This document shows, piece by piece, positions 2,826 through 39,943 of a stretch of DNA of 45,417 nucleotides. The notes under the pieces are model-generated. The model was not told the origin of the DNA, ran no database searches, and saw only the letters and a list, made by a program, of their open reading frames with translations. The DNA is from a virus (lineage: Duplodnaviria; Heunggongvirae; Uroviricota; Caudoviricetes): the IMG/VR virus record IMGVR_UViG_2706794697_000014. One strand, written 5' to 3'. Position numbers and translations under genes: made by a program. Numbering within the stretch: the stretch's first letter is position 1; each line of letters opens with the position of its first letter.

Positions 2826-3074
2826 ATGCGTATTGAAATCTGCATAGCCAAAGAAAAAATGACTAAAATGCCAACCGGTGCTGTGGATGCGTTAAAGGAA
2901 GAATTAACCCGACGCATCAGTAAACGTTATGACGATGTAGAAGTGATCGTAAAAGCCACCAGCAACGATGGCCTTTCTGTTACGCGCACCGCTGATAAAG
3001 ATTCAGCTAAAACTTTTGTTCAGGAGACTCTGAAAGATACCTGGGAGTCTGCTGACGAGTGGTTTGTTCATTAA
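2826..3074 (+). CDS. DinI-like damage-inducible protein
   Basis: 82-aa product [10 protein letters not shown]...[16 protein letters not shown] resembles DinI/MsgA family (C-terminal TWESADxWF); preceded by a LexA box. Confidence 0.8.
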
Positions 3075-3105: not shown

Positions 3106-3135
3106 TTGACTTTAAGATCATTAAATTGTAATAAT
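3106..3135 (+). promoter_or_regulatory. candidate sigma70 promoter for structured leader and TM-RT operon
   Basis: TTGACT (3106-3111), 18-nt spacer, AATAAT (3130-3135) with TG two nt upstream; predicted start about 3141. Confidence 0.3.
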
Positions 3136-3140
3136 TCAAA

Positions 3141-3277
3141 GGGATGGGGCAGGTTTTTCCTCTTGCGCATGCAAGGGCGGCTCTGATAATGAACAGTAAT
3201 ATTTTACTGTTGAGCTTATGCTCACTGATCCTGCCGGGCAGGATGTTCAACGGTTCCAATATATCCTGCCCCTTCCG
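3141..3277 (+). ncRNA. candidate structured non-coding RNA upstream of the RT module (retron msr-msd-like or DRT-type ncRNA)
   Basis: 13-nt inverted repeats GGGATGGGGCAGG (3141-3153) and CCTGCCCCTTCC (3265-3276, 12/13 complementary) flank three internal hairpins: CTTGC-GCAT-GCAAG (3162-3175), AACAGTAA-TATT-TTACTGTT (3192-3211), perfect palindrome ATCCTGCCGGGCAGGAT (3228-3244); no ORF. Confidence 0.3.
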
Positions 3278-3296
3278 CTTTTAAAAAGGATCTTTT

Positions 3297-3848
3297 ATGC
3301 ATGACAATATTTGGTTTACATATAAAGCACGTATCCAAGCGCACCATCGACTAGAATGGCTTGAAAAACACTCTCAATTTATCCTCGTTTGGTATGCTAT
3401 ATTGAGTGCGGTACTTTCAATTGTAACGTTGCGATTTCCAAAGGTTCTAGGAGATAATACAGATGTCGTTGCGGCGATACTTTCAGTGGCTCTACTGGGT
3501 ATTTCTCTGATCGTATCTAACCTAGATTTTCGTGGTCGAGCAATAGCCATGAGAAGGAATTATATTGCACTACAGCGACTCTATTTTGACATTACCACCA
3601 GTCAACAGTTATCTCTTGAACAGAAAGAAAAATATTTTAATTTGCTCAATGAGGTTGAGAATCACCGTGACATAGATGATAAAATTTCAAGGGTAACTCA
3701 AGTTGGACTTAAGACGAGGATCCCCACACAAAAAGAAAAAATAATTGTTATTTTATGGATATTACTTCGAATATTTATTACTGCCGCACTTTATATACTC
3801 CCATTAATATATCTTTGGATTGACTATGACTGCAAGCAGAATTTTTAA
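3297..3848 (+). CDS. small multi-pass membrane protein, putative effector partner of the RT
   Basis: 183-aa ORF, AGGA RBS; hydrophobic segments FILVWYAILSAVLSIVTL, VVAAILSVALLGISLIVSNL, IIVILWILLRIFITAALYILPLIYLWI; AT-rich; overlaps RT start by 23 nt. Confidence 0.7.
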   Translation: MHDNIWFTYKARIQAHHRLEWLEKHSQFILVWYAILSAVLSIVTLRFPKVLGDNTDVVAAILSVALLGISLIVSNLDFRGRAIAMRRNYIALQRLYFDITTSQQLSLEQKEKYFNLLNEVENHRDIDDKISRVTQVGLKTRIPTQKEKIIVILWILLRIFITAALYILPLIYLWIDYDCKQNF

Positions 3849-5196
3849 AAAGTCATTCTCGAAAAAAAATCTTCTAAAAGTATACTCTGAAAAAATCAAA
3901 GAATCAGGAGCGATTGGCATAGATCGGATTCGCCCATCAAAACTTGATTTGACAATAAAAAATGAGATCACTTTCATTTTTGAAAAGGTTAATTCTGGCA
4001 ATTACAAATTTACAGCATATAAAGAAAAATTAATATCTAAAGGCGCTAACTCTACACCCAGACAGATTTCCATACCAACTGCTAGGGACAGAATTACTCT
4101 TAGAGCTCTCTGTGAATGCCTTACGGAAATATATCCTAAGTCCAGATTAAAACTACCACATACAGTAATTGACTCATTGAAAGAAGCATTAAACAACAGT
4201 CTATATGCTGAATATGCAAAAATAGATCTTAAAAGTTTCTATCCTTCAATTGAACATAAATTGATAATTAATGCAATAAAAAATAAAATTAGAAAAAAAG
4301 AAATTAGACAGTTAATAACATCATCATTAATCGTGCCTACTGTAAGTGGAACCACAGGAAGCAAAGGTATCCCTAATAATACCAGAGGAGTACCTCAGGG
4401 ATTAGCGATATCAAACATTTTAGCTGAAATATCACTATCTAATTTCGATGATGAAATCAATAAAATGCATGACATATGGTACATGCGATACGTTGATGAC
4501 ATTCTTATTTTAACACCAAAATATCAAGCAACAAAAATAGCTTCTCATATCATTGATAAGCTTCAATCATTAAATTTAAACCCACATCCATTAAATGAAG
4601 AGAACTCAAAATCCAAAGTAGGCAGCTTGGATGAAAGTTTCAACTTTTTGGGCTACCACATAAAAAATCGAGAATTATTGATAAAACATGAGAGCATTCT
4701 TAGATTTGAGTCATCCTTAGCAAAAATTTTTACTGCATATAGACACGCTCTACTACAAGCTAAAAATAAGCGCGATAAAGAACGAGCTGTTGCATATTGT
4801 CAGTGGAAACTAAATCTTAGAATTACGGGATGTGTGTTTGAAGGTAAACGATTGGGATGGGTATCGTACTTCTCACAAATAACGTCAACAGCTCAACTTC
4901 GAGCTGTTAATCATACGATCAATAATCTTATCCGCCGATTCGGCCTTTCATCAGAAATAAAACCAAAGTCTTTGATTAAAACTTTCTATGAACTCCGCAG
5001 GGGTAGAGCGGAGACTTTTAAATACATACCTAACTTTGACAATCTACATATATCTCAGAAACGAGAAATTGTTTCTATGTGGATAGGGAAAGAGAATGAA
5101 AAAAAACTTAGCAATAGTGAAATAGAGAGAAAATTTAAATTTAAAATTGCGAAATCAGTAAAAGAGCTTGAAGAGGACATTTCAGGGATATCATAG
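3826..5196 (+). CDS. reverse transcriptase (defence-associated/retron-like; family unassigned)
   Basis: RT motifs in translation: ISIPTARDRITLRAL (motif 1-2), KIDLKSFYPSIEH (3), GVPQGLAISNILAEI (4), YMRYVDDILIL with YVDD catalytic box (5), FNFLGYHI (7), thumb-like GKRLGWVSYF; ATG at 3826 within track ORF 3820..5196. Confidence 0.85.
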   Translation: MTASRIFKKSFSKKNLLKVYSEKIKESGAIGIDRIRPSKLDLTIKNEITFIFEKVNSGNYKFTAYKEKLISKGANSTPRQISIPTARDRITLRALCECLTEIYPKSRLKLPHTVIDSLKEALNNSLYAEYAKIDLKSFYPSIEHKLIINAIKNKIRKKEIRQLITSSLIVPTVSGTTGSKGIPNNTRGVPQGLAISNILAEISLSNFDDEINKMHDIWYMRYVDDILILTPKYQATKIASHIIDKLQSLNLNPHPLNEENSKSKVGSLDESFNFLGYHIKNRELLIKHESILRFESSLAKIFTAYRHALLQAKNKRDKERAVAYCQWKLNLRITGCVFEGKRLGWVSYFSQITSTAQLRAVNHTINNLIRRFGLSSEIKPKSLIKTFYELRRGRAETFKYIPNFDNLHISQKREIVSMWIGKENEKKLSNSEIERKFKFKIAKSVKELEEDISGIS

Positions 5197-5308
5197 ATAT
5201 GTAATCCATTAAATCCTTTATATATAAAGCAATAAACACACTATTTAAATTCACAAATCAGCCGCAGTATCCTGCCATGACAAGTTGCTGCGGCATATCA
5301 CAAAACGA

Positions 5309-5893
5309 TTACTCCATAACAGGGACCGCAGGCCACTCAATATCAGGTGCAGTTGATGTATCAACACGGTTCAGCAACACCCGATACTTCTTCCAGGCTT
5401 CCAGCAACGAGTTTTCTTCCTCCGTTGCGATCTCCAGATCTACAGCATCCTGAAGTGGCGCTATATGCTCACTGGCTACCTGCATCAGGCTGTTTTTTGT
5501 TTCTTCCGCCTCCCGGATCCGGAACAGTTTTTCTGCTTCCGTATCCTTCACCCAGGCTGTGCCGTTCCACTTCTGAAACTCCCCTTCCGGGGATAACCAG
5601 GTAACATTTTCCGGTAACGGACCGAGTTCAGAAATAAATAACGCGTCCCCTGACGCTACGTCATAAACCGTTTTACCCCGATGGTCTTCAACGAGATGCC
5701 ACGATGCCTCATCACTGTTGAAAACAGCCACAAAGCCAGCCGGAATATCTGGCGGTGCAATATAGGTACTGTTTGCTGGCAGACCTGTATGAGGCGGAAT
5801 ATATGCGTCACCTTCACCAATAAATTCATTAGTTCCGGTCAGCAGATTATAAATTTTTATGGTCCGTGGTTGTTCACTCATTCTGAATGCCAT
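5309..5893 (-). CDS. tfa: tail fibre assembly protein
   Basis: 194-aa product [18 protein letters not shown]...[10 protein letters not shown] closely matches lambda Tfa as recalled. Confidence 0.9.
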
Positions 5894-8800
5894 TATGCAA
5901 GCCTCACAATATAGTTAAATGCGATGTTTTTGACGGTGTTTTCCGCGTTACCCGCAGCGTTAACGGTGATGGTATGTCCATGTGAACCAATCGCAACGGA
6001 GTGCGTATGAGCACCAATACCGACAGTATGCGCGTGTGCACCTGCAGATGCTGCTGTGCCGGACAGTGAGTGGCTATGATTACCATCTGTACTGGTATTC
6101 GCTAACCACCCCGTAGACATACCTACTGAGCCTTGTACACCCCAGGTATTTTGACCTGAGCTTGTATAACCATATTGATAAGTATCTTTAAAAACACTGG
6201 GGTTAAATCGACGGCCATCTCTATGGCTGTGATTACCAGCTGCATTCGTGCTGCCACTTAAACTATGGGTATGCGCACCAGTGTTATTCGTGGATTTAGT
6301 GCCGTAATCAAACGACGATGTGGTTTTCGTCCCCAAATCCGTACTGGATGCGCTGGCGCTGTGGGTATGCGATTTAATGCCGTCCTGTTCCTGAGACAAT
6401 ACGGCCCGACCACTGGCAGGTTTGCCCTTAATCGTCCAGCCACGCATATCAGGGATCACACCTGACGGATAAACGGCTGCAAGTTTCGGGTAAGCAGATT
6501 TGTCAAAAGTCTGTCCCTGCATCAGGGCATAACCAGACGGAACGGTATCTGATGGCCACGGGATTGGTGCACCGACTGGGTAGCTTTCTGGTGGAAGATT
6601 TTTCGAGGTATAAACTTCTGCCCAGTCTTCCTCAAAACCATAACCGTCTCTTGAAGAACGGTAGAACAGACCACCATTTCTGTAATGCGCCTTCATCTGC
6701 AAGGTCCGGCAACTTCCGACTCCGGTATAGAAGTTAACCAGAATATAGCTGTTGCCAGAGCGGGTGACATTGTAAGCGCCTGATTCGGCATTCCATGGAA
6801 CGCCACCATCCGCATCGGCATATGTATCCGTTGCCCTTCTGGCAAAAGCAGCCACATGCGCGGCGGTTAAAGTAATATCTTTGGAACCATCAAACTCAAC
6901 ACCAGAAACCAGTCTTGGCGTTTGCAGCTTTGTTGCTGTCAATGCGTTACCGTTCAGACTTGCAGACAGTTTGGTTCCAATAACCAGTTCGCCGGTTGCG
7001 TTATCAATAACAAACGGTCTTAATGTATTCCAGCCACCATAAACATCACCTTGATTGGTAAGCAGCAGGTAAGTTTTAGCGCCATCATTACGCCATAATG
7101 CACCATACTCCCCACCTATCATTCGAATCTGATTACCACCACGCGCTACAATTTCGTCTGTGGCAAAAAGTTTTTTGCACGACAAGTTATCGTTAACGAT
7201 TAACGAATGAGACTCATAAAAACCACGCCCACTCTTAAAATCAAGGATAACGTCCGCCGCGATACATTCAGTCGCCGGATTTGTTGCCCCAAACTTATAG
7301 GTCGTATCATTAACAACGAGATCAGCACCAGGTGCGGATATTGACAGGCCATCTTCGAGAAACGCAAAAACAGGGAAAGCAGCGCCATCAACATAGAACA
7401 CAGAGCGCAAATCATCGCCCTTATTACTCATCATTATTGAGTGGATGGCTCGTTCATTGTTTTGATATTGCCAGAACATTCCATAAGCATAACGCCCCCT
7501 GTCAGTCCAGCCACCAGGCATAACAAATCCGTTAAACTCGCAGTTATTCATCGGATCGCCTGCGATTCGCGTTGCCGTGGTGATAATGACCCTTGATGCC
7601 AGTTCGCTTACTGAGCCAGCAGAACGCATAACAACAACAGGGTAATATTTTCCAGATGTTGCACCTGCAGGAGCGTTAACCCGCACATAACGCATACCAC
7701 GCTTATCAGCAAAGTCTGTTTTACTGACCGCGTTAATGTTGTTCAGGAAGCGTCCCTTATCGGGTATATCAGCGCCGTTCTGGTCTTTCTGCAGACGTTT
7801 CTCAGCATTGTCATTGGCTGCTTTTACTGCCTTTGGCGTTGCCGCCAGCGTTTCAGACGTGCTATTAGTCGCACTACTGAGCTGTACTATCCCCTTTTTC
7901 GTCGTGCTCGCATCCTCAAGCGCCACGGCGGATGCAATATCCTCTGCACGTTTTGCCGCTGTCTCGGCGCGCGTTGCCGCGGATTCCGCCGTACTTTTGC
8001 TCTGTGCTGCCGCCGTCGCACTGCCAGCAGCCTCTGTCGCCTTCGTGGATGCTGTCGTGGCGCTGCCCTTCGCTGCGGACGCTTGTCTGGTCGCCTCATC
8101 TTTTGAAGCAGACGCCGATGATGCCGATGACGCCGCCGAACTGGCGGACGATGCGGCAGCCGTTTTTGAGGATTCTGCGCTGGTCTCCGACGCTTTCGCG
8201 TTCGTCTCCGATGTCTTCGCTGCGGAAGCAGACCTCGCTGCTGCACTGGCCTGTTCAGTGGCTTCGCCAGCCTTCGTTGTGGCTGTTGAAGCGGACGATG
8301 CGGCGCTTTCTGCCGATTTTCCGGCGGCGCTAGCACTGGCTGAGGCCTGCCCGGCACTTGTTGACGCTGCACTGGCAGACGACGCAGCCGCTGTTTTTGA
8401 GCCTGCTGCTGCGGAGGCACTCTGTGCTGCTGCCGTTTCAGAGGACTTAGCGTTTGTCTCAGACGTCTTTGCCGCCTTCGCGGAATTTCCTGCCGCCGTT
8501 GCCGAGGAAGCGGCATTACTGGCGCTCGAAGCTGCGCTCGTTTCTGATAATTTTGCCGCCTCTTTTGAAGCCGACGCATCTCTGGCTGAGGTGGCTGCTT
8601 CTGACGCTTTCGTGGTCGCGGTGGATGCAGAAGTGGCAGCTGATTGTTGTGACGCTGCCGCATTCGTTTCTGACGTTTTCGCCGCACCGGCTGATGTGCT
8701 GGCATCGCTGGCTGATTTCTTCGCGGCTGCCGTGTTCTGTGCCACCGCGGACGCGTTACGCGCCACCTCTTCCACCATCAGTTCAAAGCGGCGCAGTGCC

Positions 8801-9108
8801 TCAGGACGGGCATCATCCTCCGTCATGGCACCGAGAAAATCATTCAGCGTACCGGGTCGGGAATCTTCATACACGGTGATGGTCCCGGCATGTGACGGCG
8901 GGAATCCTTCCACCAACAGAATAACGCTGTACTGACCGTACTCAACGTCCATGCTGTAACGCCCGGCTTCATCCGGATTTTCTGAGGCCAGCGTGTTCAC
9001 CACCACCGTGGTGCTGTTACGTTTTGCTTTCAGCTGGATTGTGCAGTTCTGTACCGGTTTTCCTGTGCCGTCTTTCAGTACACCTGAAATCTTTACTGCC
9101 ATATTCAC
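5893..9108 (-). CDS. stf: side tail fibre protein (mosaic)
   Basis: 1071-aa ORF; N-terminus [26 protein letters not shown] and C-terminus ...[28 protein letters not shown] match lambda Stf; Ala/Ser/Thr-rich repeats and His-rich GAHTHS repeats. Confidence 0.9.
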
Positions 9109-9836: not shown

Positions 9837-12800
9837 TCAACGAATACTGATGCCGGAAGCGGCTTTTTTGGTCACAATCACCGTACAGTCGGTGATATTG
9901 CCTGCCCCCTGATTGCCTTTCTGGAAAATCTTAAACTCCAGAGTGACGCTTCCCCTGCCACTCGGCATATCAATAACTGCACTGTAACTACCGGGAATGG
10001 CCCCTTTAGTTTCTCTGGATGCGATTAATACGCCGTTTTTGCGAACTTCAAAACCATAACCCGTGTATCGCGTGCCTCCTGGGTTATTTCCGCTCCCCGG
10101 ATCGTCATACGCTATACCGTTAAAAATAATGGGCGGAATAATAATCTGGCGGTCAAAGTTATGATCATCGCTGATGGTGACTGTAACCGTACCGTTTGGT
10201 GTTTCCGTGTTACCCCACGTACCGACTTTTTTCGGGAAGGCTTTTGATACAGCTTTAACGAAATCCCCTCTGACCTGGGTCGCCTCCAGCATGCCCTTAA
10301 TCGTACAGTTCTGGTTAATCGTGACATTGTTGAGCGTCCCTGAATTTGCATTCACATTACCGCTGATATCCGCATTTTTAGCGGTCAGCTTTCCGTCTGG
10401 TGTCAGGGAAAATGCCGGCGGATTTCCACCGCTGGTAATGGTGGGAGCCGTCAGGCGTTTCAGGAACACGTCATTCATGAATATCTGGTTGCCCTGCGCC
10501 ACAAACATCGGCGTTTCATTCCCGTTTGCCGGGTCAATAAACGCGATACGGTTAGCGGCAACCAGAAACTGGCTCAGTTTGCCTTCCTCCGTGTCCTCCA
10601 TGCTGAGGCCAATACCCGCGACATAATGTTTGCCGTCTTTGGTCTGCTCAATTTTGACGCCCCACATGGCATTCCACTTATCGTTGGCGTCCTTCCACTC
10701 TTTCGAAAACTCCTCCAGTCTGCTGGCGTTATCCTCCGTCAGGTCGACTTTTTCCAGCAGCTCCTGGCCGAGATGGGATTCGGTTATCTGGCCTTTGAAA
10801 AAATCCAGGTAACCTTCCGCATCATCGCTCGCCCGACCGACAGCCTCCACGAATGCTGATTTGCCGACGGTGTTCACACTGCGGATATAAAAGTAATAAT
10901 CATGGCCCGGCTTAATATTGATACTGGCGGCTATCCAGTACAGCCCCGTGCCAAGGTAGCGGGCTGTGGTTTCAACCTGCCTGATATCCGCAATCCGTTT
11001 TTCCGAGAACCAGAACTCAAACTGTACCGTCGGGTCATAAACCGCAAGATGCGGCGTGGCGGTTATCTGAAAATAGCCCGGCGTCAGCTCAATCCGCGAC
11101 GGCGCTGCCGGTGCGGCAATCCGGAACGATACCGACGCCGGATCGCCCTGCTGCCCCCACGCATTTACTGCCCGGACTGTCAGCCTGTAGTTCCCCAGAG
11201 CCAGTTGTGTGAAGCGGTAAGTGGTTTCCGTCGTCCGGGCCGTGCTGACCAGCCGCTCACGGCCGTCATCCGCTGCCACGGTCAGGCGAAGCAGGAAGCT
11301 CACGCCCTTCACCACCTTCGGCGTGTCCCAGCGGGCCAGCACCTGGTATTCCCCGCTGTCTGCGGTGACTTCTGCGGTCAGGTGCTGCACCGCTGGCGGC
11401 GTGACACCATTTACCGTGCCGCTCTGGTCGCCGTCAAAGTGCGCCCCGTTATCCACGATGGCCTCTTTTTCCGGTACATGCTGCACGGCAGTGATGGCAT
11501 ACGTGCCGTCGTCGTTCTCACGGATACTCACGCAGCGGAACAGGCGCTGGCGCAGCGTCGGCAGCTTCAGCCCCCATACGCTGTATTCAGCAACGCCGTC
11601 AGGAACACGGCTCACTTTCACCTTCACGCCGTCGGTGACGGACTGAACCTCCACGCTGACCGGACTCCCCTGCCCGTCAACCAGGCTTATCAGCGTGGTG
11701 CCGGAAGATGGCAGCGTGATTTCACGGTCGAGCGTCAGCGTCCGGGTCTGGCTGTTTACCGCCAGCACGCGCCCGCCGGTGCGGATACCGGCATAGTCAT
11801 CATCGCAGATTTCAATGACATCGCCCGGTACATGACGAAGCCCTTCAGCACCCACGCTGAAGTCCACGGTCTGCGTTTCCAGCAGTTCTGTTTTAATCAG
11901 CCACAGCCCGGCGCGGTGTGCCTGCCCCCGGCTGGTACAGCCAAAAGCATCCATCTTCGTGACGTTACGACCGTAACGGGCAATGGCCTGCGTGTCCTCC
12001 ACAAGCTCTGTCGCCGTCTCCCAGCCGTTATTCGGGTCAATCCAGTTCACCTCAACGGCATTATGGCGGTCCTTCAGGGCGCTGAANNNNNNNNNNNNNN
12101 NNNNNNNNNNNNNNNNNNNNNNNNNNNNNNNNNNNNNNNNNNNNNNNNNNNNNNNNNNNNNNNNNNNNNNNNNNNNNNNNNNNNNNNNNNNNNNNNNNNN
12201 NNNNNNNNNNNNNNNNNNNNNNNNNNNNNNNNNNNNNNNNNNNNNNNNNNNNNNNNNNNNNNNNNNNNNNNNNNNNNNNNNNNNNNNNNNNNNNNNNNNN
12301 NNNNNNNNNNNNNNNNNNNNNNNNNNNCGGCATCACCACATTACTGCGGTTATAGGTCCACACCTTATCCGACGGTCGGTCCTGCACGAACGTCAGCGTC
12401 TGCCCGTTCCATACCGGCATACAGCGCATCGCCGAGCAGAAATCACTGAGCACATCCCACGCCTTGCGCTGTGTGGTCAGGTACGCATTACAGGTGATGC
12501 GCGGCTCCGTGCCGCCAAAACCGTCCGGCACCGACTGATCGCAATGCTGGCCGATGACATACAGCGCCCATTTGTCCACATCCGCCGCACCAAGACGTTT
12601 CCCCATGCCGTAGCGCGGATGGGTCAGCATATCCCACAGACACCAGGCCATGTTGTTGCTGTATGCTGGCTTAAACGTTCCGTCCCAGATACCGCTGTAT
12701 TGCCGCGTCTGCGGGTTATAGCTCGACGGCACCTGCAGAATGCGCCCGCGCAGATGATAATTACGGCTCACCTGCTGGCTGCCGAACTGCTCCGAATCCA

Positions 12801-13464
12801 CCTGCACGCCGACCAGTGCCGTGTTCGGGTAGCACTGTTTCACATCGATGATTTCGGTGTATGACGACCAGAGCGTTTTGTTCTGCAGCTGGTCTGTGGT
12901 GCTGTCCGGCGTCATCCTGCGCATCCGTATATTGAACGGGCGCGGCGGCAGGTTACCCACCACCACCGAGGCCAGATACTGCGAGGTGGTTTTGCCCTTA
13001 ATGGTGATGTCTTTTTCCGTCACCCAGCCACCATTACGTTGTATCTGAACCAGCAGGCGGACTTCCGACGGATTCCTGTCCCCCTTTGAGGTGGTTTCCA
13101 CCAGTGCCTGCACACCGAAGGTAAAGCGCAGACGGTCAATGTTTGCCGACGTGATGGTCCGGGTGATCGGCGTGTCGTATTTCACTTCCGTACCCAGTAC
13201 CGTCTCGGAACCTGATGATTCAAATCCCTCCGGCGGTGTCTGTTCCTGCTCACCTGCCCGGAACACCACCGTGACACCAGAGATGTTGGTATTCCCCTCA
13301 CTGTCCAGCACCGGTGTACTGTTCAGCAGCACGCTTTTTAATCCATCCACCGGACCTTCAACCGGCCCTTCGCTGATGGTATCGATCACACTCAGCAACT
13401 GCGTGGACTTCAGGTTGTCCTTTGCTTCGCGCGGGGTATGCCCCTTACTGCTGCCTTTACCCAT
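9837..13464 (-). CDS. J: tail tip / host specificity protein J (interrupted by N-run)
   Basis: two collinear minus-strand ORFs (9837..12050 and 12061..13464) separated only by N-run 12087-12327; N-terminus [24 protein letters not shown] and fibronectin-like central region as in lambda J. Confidence 0.85.
12087..12327. other. assembly gap (241 N)
   Basis: run of n within J. Confidence 1.
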
Positions 13465-14818: not shown

Positions 14819-15299
14819 TTACTGCGAAAGTTTGTTAATGGAAAGGAAGCCGCCAAAGTTGCCGACGTTATTGCGAAACTTACAGCCGCTCAGGCATTTG
14901 CTGCATTTATCCTTCGTGATATCGGACGTCGGCTGATCATATTCATCCGCGACCGCCGGACCGTGATAACCGCACTCATCGCCGCGATAGGTCCAGGTGC
15001 AGGTGTTGGCCAGCATGATACGTCCCGGAAAAACGGCACCGTCCGTTTCCGTCGGCGTGGACAGTACAANNNNNNNNNNNNNNNNNNNNNNNNNNNNNNN
15101 NNNNNNNNNNNNNNNNNNNNNNNNNNNNNNNNNNCTGTCGCCCCTGCCAGGTGACCGGCTCACCTTTTTCGTTCTGCTCATTACAGAAAAAATAACGTTC
15201 TCCACCGACCTCTGTCAGATCGATTTCCCAGAGCACCACCTGGGCTGACTGAGTGAGGCGTGTCGTCTCATGATGTGTTTCCTGTGGAATATCCTGCAT
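14819..15299 (-). CDS. L: minor tail protein L (interrupted by N-run)
   Basis: N-terminal piece MQDIPQETHHETTRLTQSAQVVLWEIDLTEVGGERYFFCNEQNEKGEPVTWQGRQ and C-terminal piece ...CKFRNNVGNFGGFLSINKLSQ match lambda L; N-run 15070-15134 breaks the frame. Confidence 0.8.
15070..15134. other. assembly gap (65 N)
   Basis: run of n within L. Confidence 1.
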
Positions 15300-30127: not shown

Positions 30128-30583
30128 NNNNNNNNNNNNNNNNNNNNNNNNNNNNNNNNNNNNNNNNNNNNNNNNNNNNNNNNNNNNNNNNNNNNNNNNN
30201 NNNNNNNNNNNNNNNNNNNNNNNNNNNNNNNNNNNNNNNNNNNNNNNNNNNNNNNNNNNNNNNNNNNNNNNNNNNNNNNNNNNNNNNNNNNNNNNNNNNN
30301 NNNNNNNNNNNNNNNNNNNNNNNNNNNNNNNNNNNNNNNNNNNNNNNNNNNNNNNNNNNNNNNNNNNNNNNNNNNNNNNNNNNNNNNNNNNNNNNNNNNN
30401 NNNNNNNNNNNNNNNNNNNNNNNNNNNNNNNNNNNNNNNNNNNNNNNNNNNNNNNNNNNNNNNNNNNNNNNNNNNNNNNNNNNNNNNNNNNNNNNNNNNN
30501 NNNNNNNNNNNNNNNNNNNNNNNNNNNNNNNNNNNNNNNNNNNNNNNNNNNNNNNNNNNNNNNNNNNNNNNNNNNNNNNNNNN
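30128..30583. other. assembly gap (456 N)
   Basis: run of n between endolysin and holin 5' end. Confidence 1.
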
Positions 30584-38321: not shown

Positions 38322-38554
38322 GCTGCACCTCCGAGATGCTTCATGTTTTTTCCGGAGCGAAAGGCTATAAGCGGCATACTGACGCGGTAATTACGGCCCA
38401 GCGGTTCACAAATCACCTTCTGGCATTCACGGTCAACCAGGCTAACACGTAGAACATGCCCTGCAGGCGTGGTGTACCACTGCCCAACTGTAGGAATTGA
38501 TATTTTTTTACGCTGAAGCAAACGGCAAATATTGAGGATCAACGGATTAAGCAT
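38318..38554 (-). CDS. hypothetical small protein
   Basis: 78-aa ORF overlapping neighbours by 4-8 nt. Confidence 0.35.
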   Translation of the reverse strand: MLNPLILNICRLLQRKKISIPTVGQWYTTPAGHVLRVSLVDRECQKVICEPLGRNYRVSMPLIAFRSGKNMKHLGGAA

Positions 38555-39383
38555 GACGATGCCCTCCGCTGATATTCAGGAGACGGTGAATATGAAAATT
38601 AGCCTTATCCGCCAGACGAATACGTTCAGCTTGCAAGTTAAGAAGGGTTTCTACCAGAACCTGATGTGCCTGCGGATCCGAAAGAGTTACCTTGCGCAGA
38701 GCACGTAGTGCAGTTGTTACATAACTGAGTTTATGTAAGTCTTCATCATTCAGACGAGTGAGGGCTGGGACAGTAGCCATGATGGCAGCCTCCTTGATCG
38801 GTGAAATACTTCCACCACCGGAAACGCCAATTTCGCTGGTGGTGAACTGAACGGGGTTGGCGTAACCGGTGATCAAGGAAACCGGCGCATCTTTCGATGC
38901 CCCCGCCCAGCCCACCATAACTTTGATGTGAGCAAATGCGGACGATAAAAAAGACGCTGGCGCGTCATATATCGCCTTGATCAATTCCAGGACGCCAATC
39001 CCGGCACCCGCTTTATAAGGTGCCTGAACAGTGTAACGTCCCGGAATGGCAGAATCAATGTGCTGGTGGTCCTTCACACTCAACAAAATCACGCCTGAAT
39101 TTCCACAAAGGACTAAAGCACTCATGCGGGTAGTCTTTGCGAAGATAGATAACGCGCTGTGTTTCTGGCTCCCAACGAATAACATGAACATAAAGTCCTC
39201 TTCCGTCACGAAACCAGCGGTTAAGTTCCTGCACAACTCGCCCCCCACAGTCAGGTAAAGTTCTCTGTGGTTACTTACAGCCAGGTGATTTGGTAATCTG
39301 CATTCATGCCGTAACAACAGGTGTTCAGCGACGCTGACCACCAGCTGTTGCGACAAACGGTTATTTGCCGTTAAACTGTTCAT
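38547..39383 (-). CDS. hypothetical early protein
   Basis: 278-aa ORF in early-right operon; no motif I can name. Confidence 0.45.
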   Translation of the reverse strand: MNSLTANNRLSQQLVVSVAEHLLLRHECRLPNHLAVSNHRELYLTVGGELCRNLTAGFVTEEDFMFMLFVGSQKHSALSIFAKTTRMSALVLCGNSGVILLSVKDHQHIDSAIPGRYTVQAPYKAGAGIGVLELIKAIYDAPASFLSSAFAHIKVMVGWAGASKDAPVSLITGYANPVQFTTSEIGVSGGGSISPIKEAAIMATVPALTRLNDEDLHKLSYVTTALRALRKVTLSDPQAHQVLVETLLNLQAERIRLADKANFHIHRLLNISGGHRHA

Positions 39384-39943
39384 GCGTTAGTTTCTCCACA
39401 GACACAAAACGCCACGACGCCCGGAGCTGCACACTCGCGGGCGTCACTCTTTTCTGGAGCGCAAAAGATTTTGTAGACCAGTGCTGCATGCTCCTGGAGC
39501 TTCGAAATTGACAGATACAACTCATCATTAATTGCTGTCTGCTCGTGTGGCTCCACTACCCCATCTTCGATTGCCGAACGAATCTGCTTTGAGTAACTCC
39601 CGATCTGTTCGATGACTTCCAGCAGGCGCTGGTTTATATCGGCGTTCTCTACTTCCTCAATTTCAGGAAGCGATACAAACACCCCACCAGCAGACTGTGC
39701 GACAGCATCCGCAATGTAGTGAGTGCCAGCCGCGCGCTGTAAAATCATTGCCCATCCCAGCGGGAAAATCTGATCGCCATCTGCACGAAGGCGGTTGAAT
39801 AAAGCGTTCTCTGTTACATCCAGCCACTCAGCAGCTTCAGCGTAACCCCCCGGCAACGCCGCGATAGTTTTTCTGACAGCTTTCACGTACCACTCAGGCT
39901 GTTTTTCTACTTTCCAGTGATGCTTACCCACGGTTAGCCTCAT
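39380..39943 (-). CDS. putative early regulatory protein (CII/CP76-like position)
   Basis: 187-aa ORF immediately downstream of cro; weak resemblance to CP76-type CII regulators. Confidence 0.4.
   Translation of the reverse strand: MRLTVGKHHWKVEKQPEWYVKAVRKTIAALPGGYAEAAEWLDVTENALFNRLRADGDQIFPLGWAMILQRAAGTHYIADAVAQSAGGVFVSLPEIEEVENADINQRLLEVIEQIGSYSKQIRSAIEDGVVEPHEQTAINDELYLSISKLQEHAALVYKIFCAPEKSDARECAAPGVVAFCVCGETNA

Follow-up and report, generated by a model that had tools for sequence, protein, structure and literature searches.

DRT10 systems (DRT, defence-associated reverse transcriptase) are defined by a reverse transcriptase (RT) of the UG17 group together with a membrane protein of the SLATT family. 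Three Escherichia coli UG17 operons were found to defend against many BASEL phages (Tang et al., October 2025). The best-studied system, Eco3DRT10, comes from E. coli 703491 (LRLX01000203.1, RT OKX54664; Tang et al., bioRxiv 10.1101/2025.10.16.682844; Ramirez et al., bioRxiv 10.64898/2026.06.29.735271). Its RT binds a non-coding RNA (ncRNA) of 137 nt encoded just upstream of the SLATT gene. The product is a kilobase-long, tandem-repeat single-stranded DNA (ssDNA), which is primed from the RT's own C-terminal serine, S456, and made in a telomerase-like A-B-A' cycle (Tang et al.). Deletion of SLATT, mutation of the catalytic YVDD to YVAA, or deletion of the ncRNA each abolishes defence (Tang et al.). 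The tandem-repeat complementary DNA (cDNA) is made constitutively by the DRT10 RT, and RT and ncRNA make it without SLATT, both in vitro and in cells (Tang et al.). The RT-ncRNA complex has also been studied by cryo-electron microscopy (cryo-EM; June 2026 preprint). A close relative of Eco3DRT10 is described here from the IMG/VR virus record IMGVR_UViG_2706794697_000014 (Caudoviricetes), a stretch of 45,417 nt referred to as the window. The element in question is the open reading frame (ORF) at 3297-3848, which an earlier sequence-only reading had proposed to encode a membrane effector coupled to an RT.

The UG17 group has been split into the subtypes A, B and C (Sanchez-Nieto et al., April 2026; bioRxiv 10.64898/2026.04.29.721553). 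In the subtype A system of Escherichia sp. E3659 (E3659 for short), SLATT is needed for both defence and toxicity. The deletion of sbcB is lethal in this system only when SLATT, an active RT and the ncRNA are all intact; SbcB (ExoI) is a 3'-5' ssDNA exonuclease. Moreover, a phage protein resembling single-stranded DNA-binding protein (SSB) is needed for activation, and in the authors' model cDNA accumulation triggers SLATT (Sanchez-Nieto et al.). RT-dead constructs with an intact SLATT served as viable controls (Tang et al.; Sanchez-Nieto et al.). As for the SLATT family, the reference cited by the DRT10 papers is Burroughs et al. 2015. The association of UG17 with SLATT is strong, and an effector role was proposed for SLATT, its link to other UG groups being only occasional (Mestre et al. 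2022). Pore formation by SLATT proteins is a prediction of the literature.

On its sequence landmarks, the locus in the window is a complete type-A DRT10 (UG17) system composed of an ncRNA (about 3142-3278), a SLATT gene (3297-3848) and an RT gene (3826-5196). The assignment to DRT10 is made because a UG17 RT and a SLATT protein define this system. The sequence traits of subtype A are found: a UG17 RT with YVDD, a SLATT coupled to the RT, a structured ncRNA with an A-B-A' loop, and a C-terminal serine. Phage defence and the production of cDNA in tandem repeats by this locus are inferred by analogy. The favoured reading, to which a probability of about 0.85 is given, is that the ORF at 3297-3848 encodes the SLATT_5 membrane effector of this system, that a rise in cDNA would switch SLATT on, and that membrane damage would follow. 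The features that carry this reading are listed below.

3106-3135, plus strand: sigma-70-like promoter for the ncRNA, with TTGACT, an 18-nt spacer and AATAAT preceded by TG (TG-n-AATAAT)
3142-3278, plus strand: predicted DRT10 ncRNA of about 137 nt with deduced ends, recognised by its fold, by covariation and by its match to the Eco3DRT10 ncRNA
3248-3260, plus strand: predicted template of the A-B-A' type, in which A is CAAC, B is GGUUC and A' is CAAU, at the position orthologous to the Eco3DRT10 template
3297-3848, plus strand: SLATT_5 protein gene with ATG start and TAA stop, 183 aa, recognised by the SLATT_5 profile match
3826-3848, plus strand: 23-nt overlap of the 3' end of SLATT with the 5' end of the RT gene, read from the sequence; the SLATT stop is at 3846-3848
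3826-5196, plus strand: UG17 (DRT10) RT, 456 aa, recognised by PADLOC RT_UG17 and Pfam RVT_1

The resemblance to Eco3DRT10 is very close. The two SLATT proteins are identical at 178 of 183 positions (97%), and none of the five differences (V57I, S106T, Q109R, K139T and I161T) falls in an invariant column of the family. The RTs share 389 of 397 residues (98%) over the portion printed in Table S1 of Tang et al. Both loci have the order ncRNA, SLATT, RT, a 183-aa SLATT, a 456-aa RT, a gene overlap, and an ncRNA of the same fold and length. They also share YVDD at residue 222, the terminal serine S456 and a TTG two codons upstream of the RT start that can be mistaken for it. They differ in the template, which is CAAUGAUUC in Eco3DRT10 and CAACGGUUC in the window, and thus in the repeat, GAATCATTG in Eco3DRT10 against the predicted GAACCGTTG in the window. 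Judged by sequence, the locus in the window is a naturally occurring allele of the DRT10 system that has been studied best. The feature itself is already known, as RefSeq names it, models in Pfam, NCBIfam and PADLOC recognise it, and it is 97% identical to a dissected protein; the near-identical Eco3DRT10 has been dissected by genetics, biochemistry and cryo-EM. New here are the natural polymorphism of the template and an ncRNA that has neither a RefSeq annotation nor an Rfam family. The locus touches a problem that is open in the field, namely by what means SLATT perceives the repeat DNA made by the RT and how it acts on the membrane, and adds no new leverage on it.

By profile comparison, the 183-aa protein is a member of the SLATT_5 family. 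It matches Pfam SLATT_5 (PF18160) with an E-value of 1.3e-28 and 100.1 bits against a cut-off of 29.5, with residues 2-173 aligned to positions 9-190 of the 192 in the profile. NCBIfam SLATT_5 (NF033631) is matched with 136.2 bits against a cut-off of 60, over profile positions 1-180 of 180, and the PADLOC model of RT-associated SLATT (RTasSLATT) with an E-value of 1.5e-56. SLATT_4, SLATT_6 and SLATT_1 gave 14-21 bits, under their cut-offs. Homologues numbered 271 at E<=1e-3. The best 120 of the 271 all have a precomputed SLATT_5 domain, and where these have a name, it is almost always "SLATT domain-containing protein", which is also what RefSeq calls the gene. Across 27 SLATT sequences with identities down to 51%, 48 columns are invariant. 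They comprise an N-terminal W-F-T-Y-K-A-R-I helix, residues of the first and second transmembrane (TM) helices, a juxtamembrane motif (N75/D77-F-R/R81...M85-R/N88-Y), and the further residues E121-N122, D127-D128 and Y166/P169, the last pair lying in the third helix. Because of the profile score, the number of homologues and the invariant columns, the sequence comparison confirms the ORF as a genuine protein-coding feature, far beyond chance. A Shine-Dalgarno sequence, AAGGA, lies 8 nt upstream of its start.

The hydropathy scan (Kyte-Doolittle, 19-residue window, threshold 1.6) gave three hydrophobic segments, at residues 25-48 (peak 2.09), 54-79 (peak 2.35) and 146-177 (peak 2.63). The predicted helices are TM1 at about 27-47, TM2 at about 55-77 and TM3 at about 147-175, with a loop of 7 residues between TM1 and TM2. 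Two close N-terminal TM helices with an optional third are the core of SLATT_5 proteins, and TM3 falls within the Pfam SLATT_5 match. The middle of the protein (residues 78-146) is basic, with 13 K/R against 8 D/E, and helical in the AlphaFold2 model; it includes RGRAIAMRRNYIALQRLYFDI at residues 79-99. The predicted cytoplasmic segments, i.e., the N-terminus and the middle, hold 17 K/R against 2 on the outside (the 48-54 loop and the C-terminal tail). Given this distribution, the protein is predicted by the positive-inside rule to be N-in/C-out, so that its conserved middle domain would face the cytoplasm. Three claims of the sequence-only reading are thereby borne out: a 183-aa protein with three hydrophobic helices, a charged helical middle, for which the stretch at residues 79-99 had been quoted, and membership in SLATT, which had been a guess from topology and now passes the Pfam and NCBIfam SLATT_5 cut-offs and matches the PADLOC RTasSLATT model. 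The layout predicted from hydropathy and charge is given below.

SLATT protein, from the N-terminus: amphipathic helix; TM1; short outside loop; TM2; basic cytoplasmic helical domain 78-146 with ENH...DD; TM3

The AlphaFold2 model is all-helical (H3-46, H55-101, H107-120, H125-134 and H145-181), and its long helices coincide with the hydropathy stretches. Its confidence is moderate (predicted local distance difference test score, pLDDT, 68.9; predicted TM-score, pTM, 0.39). Solved relatives were sought in the PDB by sequence with phmmer, which returned nothing at E<=10, and by fold with Foldseek, for which this moderate-confidence model gave only non-significant matches to helical bundles and BAR domains (best E 1.6).

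The RT matches PADLOC RT_UG17 over its full length with an E-value of 1.1e-158, the next best model being Drt3a at 3e-38, and Pfam RVT_1 with an E-value of 7e-21. Membership in the retrons was rejected, the RT being UG17 and its NCBIfam retron_St85_RT score being 58 bits, where the cut-off is 235. The catalytic YVDD is intact at residues 222-225. The C-terminus reads ...EEDISGIS, and its last residue, S456, is the priming serine of Eco3DRT10. The 12 RT sequences compared all carry YVDD at residue 222 and have serine as their last residue, and we infer protein priming from S456 in the window as in Eco3DRT10. The start of the RT is taken to be ATG 3826, where PGAP places it in a RefSeq locus identical to this one. 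The mechanical ORF list begins at TTG 3820, two codons further upstream; for the Eco3DRT10 RT, the TTG extension was described as a mis-annotation, and the shorter start was argued for (Tang et al., bioRxiv 10.1101/2025.10.16.682844).

With the RT start at 3826, the SLATT gene ends 23 nt into the RT gene, as had been read from the letters before, and the overlap probably gives translational coupling. Homologous loci were gathered via protein homologues and their encoding contigs and by a scan of viral contigs with the ncRNA motif. The SLATT-RT arrangement of the window recurs in 11 of them, and an overlap of 4-23 nt was seen in every intact locus compared, next to RTs of 454-456 aa. The earlier claim of coupling to the RT is thus upheld. 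Gene overlap has also been described for native Eco3DRT10 (Tang et al.) and for UG17-A generally (Sanchez-Nieto et al.). The two genes had been recognised as a module; the third part, the ncRNA template upstream, had been missed.

The stop codon of dinI at 3074 and the SLATT gene are separated by 222 nt, which contain a promoter-like site and a structured RNA. In the promoter scan, the site matched at 10 of 12 positions and also had the TG extension; the position of the promoter predicts a transcription start near 3141-3143. TTGACT and the -10 region are kept in the Enterobacterales homologues. DRT10 ncRNAs were described as being transcribed independently, from their own promoter (Sanchez-Nieto et al.). 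In its fold, the predicted ncRNA has a basal stem (GGGGCAGG / CCUGCCCC) along with four smaller stem-loops and a template loop of 20 nt that is left single-stranded. Its minimum free energy is -57.1 kcal/mol (z -4.56 against shuffles, none of which folded as well). The architecture and length agree with those of the 137-nt Eco3 ncRNA, in which a large central stem carries four stem-loops and the template loop directly follows SL5 (Tang et al.).

The ncRNA stretch forms a conserved island in the aligned upstream regions of homologous loci. The alignment held nine sequences, the relatives being from Serratia, Xenorhabdus, Enterobacter, Pectobacterium, Photorhabdus, Aeromonas, Pseudomonas aeruginosa and a Rhodocyclales metagenome-assembled genome (MAG). 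In the consensus of 35 pairs, 97.5% of the pair-by-sequence cells were paired, compared to 48-54% when the partners were slid by 1-3 columns. Compensatory changes were found in 13 pairs against 1-4 in the slid controls; column shuffles gave a mean of 3.9, and 0 of 500 reached 13. Both the conservation and the compensatory changes extend from E. coli to P. aeruginosa. In a scan of Rfam 15, no family covered the ncRNA. The sole Rfam match within the locus, bantam, was rejected as chance (E 0.27). RefSeq genomes have no annotated feature beneath the ncRNA, and the exact ncRNA of the window was not found in the supplementary tables of Tang et al., as far as these were accessible.

The template loop, at 3245-3264, reads GUUCAACGGUUCCAAUAUAU. 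The published Eco3 template, CAATGATTC, has no match in the window upstream of SLATT, because the window carries an allele with two substitutions, which was found by alignment. The Eco3DRT10 template was experimentally defined as CAAU-GAUUC with the realignment copy CAAU (Tang et al.). The window differs from it at Eco3 position 110 and in a single base of B, a segment that is flexible. At position 110, a substitution is tolerated and changes the product (Tang et al.). The predicted cDNA repeat of the window is (GAACCGTTG)n, read 5' to 3', with a period of 9. The exact Eco3 template was found at the orthologous position in two IMG/VR contigs and in E. coli NCCP12480, whose SLATT is one residue different from that of Eco3. 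In total, five natural alleles with periods of 9 or 10 are present among the relatives, each followed by its A' copy: CAACGGUUC (CAAU) in the window, CAAUGAUUC (CAAU) in Eco3, CAAAGUAUC (CAAA), CAAUAGUUUC (CAAU), and CAACGGUACU (CAAA) in P. aeruginosa. CAA...CAA is kept in every allele, and the B segment varies. An alternative register, GUUC-AACG-GUUC with a period of 8, was judged less likely because its second GUUC is not kept in the other alleles; the constant CAA...CAA supports the 9-nt register.

If the locus works like its described relatives, its RT would bind the ncRNA, prime from its own C-terminal serine and copy the A-B template repeatedly, re-annealing at A' in each round, to give long ssDNA tandem repeats (GAACCGTTG)n. 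SLATT would lie in the inner membrane in an N-in/C-out orientation and present a conserved basic cytoplasmic face made of the WFTYKARI helix, the DFRGR..MR.NY juxtamembrane motif and the ENH..DD motif. During infection, a phage SSB-like protein would disturb ssDNA turnover, and the repeat cDNA or an RT-cDNA adduct would pass a threshold. Above this threshold, SLATT would be switched on and damage the membrane, and the cell would be stopped before the phage completes its cycle. The landmarks of the locus, all intact (YVDD, S456, the 23-nt overlap, the ncRNA fold and the A-B-A' template), support its reading as a DRT10 effector system. The effector role suggested by the sequence-only reading agrees with the need for SLATT in defence in the 97% identical Eco3DRT10, and in defence and toxicity in E3659. 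Its idea that the RT senses infection does not hold, since the published RT is constitutive, and activation depends on the cDNA level, ExoI (SbcB) and the phage SSB-like protein.

Several points weigh against this reading. Pore formation, depolarisation and DNA binding by any DRT10 SLATT are proposals only, and both groups call the question open. The SLATT model is only moderately confident, and no solved relative was found that would back a pore architecture. The functional data come from other alleles, Eco3DRT10 and E3659. As for the template, the fourth base of A is not that of A' (CAAC vs CAAU), and a GUUC...GUUC repeat with a period of 8 competes, so that the predicted 9-nt product could be imprecise. 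The A/A' match is 4 nt in Eco3DRT10, compared to 3 nt plus a possible dG:rU wobble in the window. Finally, the cDNA abundance of Eco3DRT10, the window's closest relative, fell upon infection with phage Bas18 (Tang et al.), which is the opposite of what a simple model of more cDNA switching SLATT on would predict.

This fall in cDNA led Tang et al. to raise the possibility of a reverse order of events. Constitutive cDNA would hold a toxic SLATT off, like an antitoxin, and infection would lower the cDNA and free SLATT. As the window is of the Eco3 type, the observation keeps this explanation alive for the window allele. Nevertheless, we consider it improbable. The YVAA and ncRNA-deleted constructs carry SLATT and are viable, losing defence only. 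The toxicity of the sbcB deletion needs an active RT and the ncRNA, meaning that more cDNA is toxic, not protective. Furthermore, a decayed locus of Pseudomonas viridiflava (L010, 3001-3531) has retained an intact SLATT ORF of 176 aa, although its RT has disappeared and its ncRNA region does not align any more. Infection may also lower the cDNA as a side effect. The viable RT-dead constructs and the persistence of this orphan agree with a SLATT that does no harm when cDNA is absent. Together with the dependence of sbcB-deletion toxicity on an active RT, they are the reason why activation of SLATT by cDNA is favoured.

That the pore activity of the DRT10 SLATT is a proposal also leaves room for a different division of labour. 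SLATT might be an inner-membrane tether or scaffold for the RT, ncRNA and cDNA, the damage being done by the repeat ssDNA or by a host factor. Long homopolymer cDNA has been described as toxic in DRT9. In addition, Mestre et al. give SLATT an accessory role in RADAR, UG3+UG8 (DRT3) and UG28 (DRT9), and an effector role in UG17. On the other hand, sbcB-deletion cells with accumulated cDNA survive when SLATT is mutated, so DNA alone is not the toxin. RT and ncRNA make cDNA without SLATT, as was mentioned, and SLATT is strongly tied to UG17 and only occasionally to other UG groups. A mere scaffold is therefore very unlikely, and SLATT as the cDNA-activated effector is again the reading of choice.

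The template alleles raise a further question. According to published experiments, the B segment is freely mutable. The window allele CAACGGUUC is found without any change beside SLATT proteins of as little as 59% identity, which might reflect a reading of the repeat sequence by the SLATT cytoplasmic domain or by a phage-encoded inhibitor. The natural alleles would then not be neutral, and the window allele would have a different threshold, an idea that is speculative and that we hold to be rather doubtful. Given the mismatched fourth base of A and A' and the competing GUUC register, the window allele may yield mixed 8-nt and 9-nt repeats with an altered activation threshold. If the alleles were indeed non-neutral, their comparison would be a direct handle on what SLATT senses.

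The cassette is a low-GC insert in a lambdoid prophage integrated at dusA, with a GC content of 33-34% against about 45-55% in the surrounding region. Its site is the 5' end of dusA, and its tyrosine integrase gene lies next to it at 1668-2765 (region 542-2765). The gene order is dusA, integrase, DinI, and ncRNA-SLATT-RT, followed on the opposite strand by tail-fibre assembly, tail fibre, Lom and J. The block of DinI, DRT10 and tfa is also present in prophages at prfC and near yecD/aspS of other E. coli strains, DinI being frameshifted in two. The locus was matched in 197 of 5,426 complete E. coli genomes, 188 of which hold at least 80% of it, and all matches are chromosomal. No near-identical match to the cassette was found in the GenBank phage collection; it was seen in prophages and IMG/VR contigs.

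Given this location between int/dinI and the tail-fibre genes, which is typical of morons in lambdoid prophages, the ORF could be thought to encode a lysis protein (holin-like) or a superinfection exclusion (Sie-like) protein that lies beside the RT by chance. The PHROGs entry for the SLATT family, which gives its function as unknown, would agree with this. However, the curated SLATT_5 thresholds are passed, and no holin or Sie family is matched. The ncRNA-SLATT-RT order and the overlap also recur in non-phage chromosomal settings across Enterobacterales, Aeromonas, Pseudomonas and Rhodocyclales. On the family match and this conserved synteny outside phages, the prophage-protein explanation was rejected, and its probability is close to nil. 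When other genera carry the cassette, its three parts follow one another in this order amid surroundings that are unrelated, frequently next to further defence or toxin-antitoxin genes, for example AbiEii, a PLD-helicase pair, PIN/PhD and SymE. A search with a single protein for related loci in genome contigs returned one locus, in a Rhodocyclales MAG, at 48% identity. Decay was also seen in Aeromonas, where the RT is cut to 176 aa beside a DDE transposase (L009, 3001-4369).

Other features were observed in the window. The ORF list contains short antisense ORFs over the SLATT and RT genes:

3374-3550, minus strand: short antisense ORF
3804-4001, minus strand: short antisense ORF

Between the convergent RT and tail-fibre-assembly genes, an inverted repeat (GCCGCAG...CTGCGGC, 20-nt loop) at 5261-5294 is a possible bidirectional terminator, which was not called by the terminator scan. 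A full-length match to the Rfam family IS009 (RF02111; 224.6 bits, gathering threshold 117) lies on the minus strand at 5352-5550, wholly within the tail-fibre-assembly gene (5309-5893); this 'sRNA' family thus overlaps prophage coding sequence there. The tail-fibre gene (5893-9108) has a repeat part that is GC-rich and rich in Ala/Ser. Two long ORFs, 7736-8935 (plus strand, 399 aa) and 7887-8705 (minus strand, 272 aa), run over this part in the antisense direction or in another frame and are almost certainly by-products of repeat composition, not genes. Runs of N occur at 12087-12327 (241 bases), 15070-15134 (65) and 30128-30583 (456). Because of the first run, the tail-tip gene J appears as two ORFs, 9837-12050 and 12061-13464, a masking artefact and not a frameshift. 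Further downstream, a C4 antisense RNA (RF01695, 82 bits) and isrK (RF01394, 64 bits) are located beside each other at 38835-39023 on the minus strand. The pair adjoins an ORF of the Ash family (38547-39383) and a regulator resembling CII/CP76 (39380-39943), and the region may be a prophage immunity or regulatory region.

Beyond Eco3DRT10, the locus can be compared to the UG17-A system of Escherichia sp. E3659 (Sanchez-Nieto et al., bioRxiv 10.64898/2026.04.29.721553). Both have an upstream ncRNA, a SLATT_5 protein and an RT, with genes that overlap or abut. The E3659 SLATT, which starts with MSDLSDKIWWTRKAKIK, is much more distant in sequence. The SLATT and RT genes span 561 and 1,338 nt in E3659, compared to 552 and 1,371 nt in the window, and E3659 has a 7-nt repeat and a 143-nt ncRNA with six predicted stem-loops. 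Telomerase (the protein TERT with telomerase RNA) resembles only the RT-ncRNA half of the system, which shares with it a short internal template, A-B-A' realignment and repeat-addition processivity. In contrast to telomerase, DRT10 is protein-primed, serves no chromosome end and feeds its product to a membrane effector. This likeness is not relevant to SLATT.

The SLATT protein itself is comparable to the SLATTs of CBASS, RADAR (RdrD), DRT3 and DRT9 and to the 2TM effectors of retrons. All are small alpha-helical proteins with two close N-terminal TM helices, encoded beside an enzyme that produces nucleotides or nucleic acids in systems of the abortive-infection type, and pore formation is predicted. 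The analogy with retron and CBASS 2TM effectors that was drawn before stands as far as the SLATT-type architecture is concerned and fails for the enzyme, as the RT is UG17, no cyclic nucleotidyltransferase (CD-NTase) was found in the locus, so that the association with a CD-NTase that marks CBASS is absent, and the PADLOC '2TM' Effector models reached only 19-20 bits (E about 1e-4). The SLATTs of CBASS, RADAR, DRT3 and DRT9 belong to other subfamilies than that of the window. The presumed ligand differs as well, being repeat ssDNA or an RT-DNA adduct in the window and not a cyclic oligonucleotide. Lastly, SLATT is accessory in RADAR, DRT3 and DRT9, but essential in DRT10.

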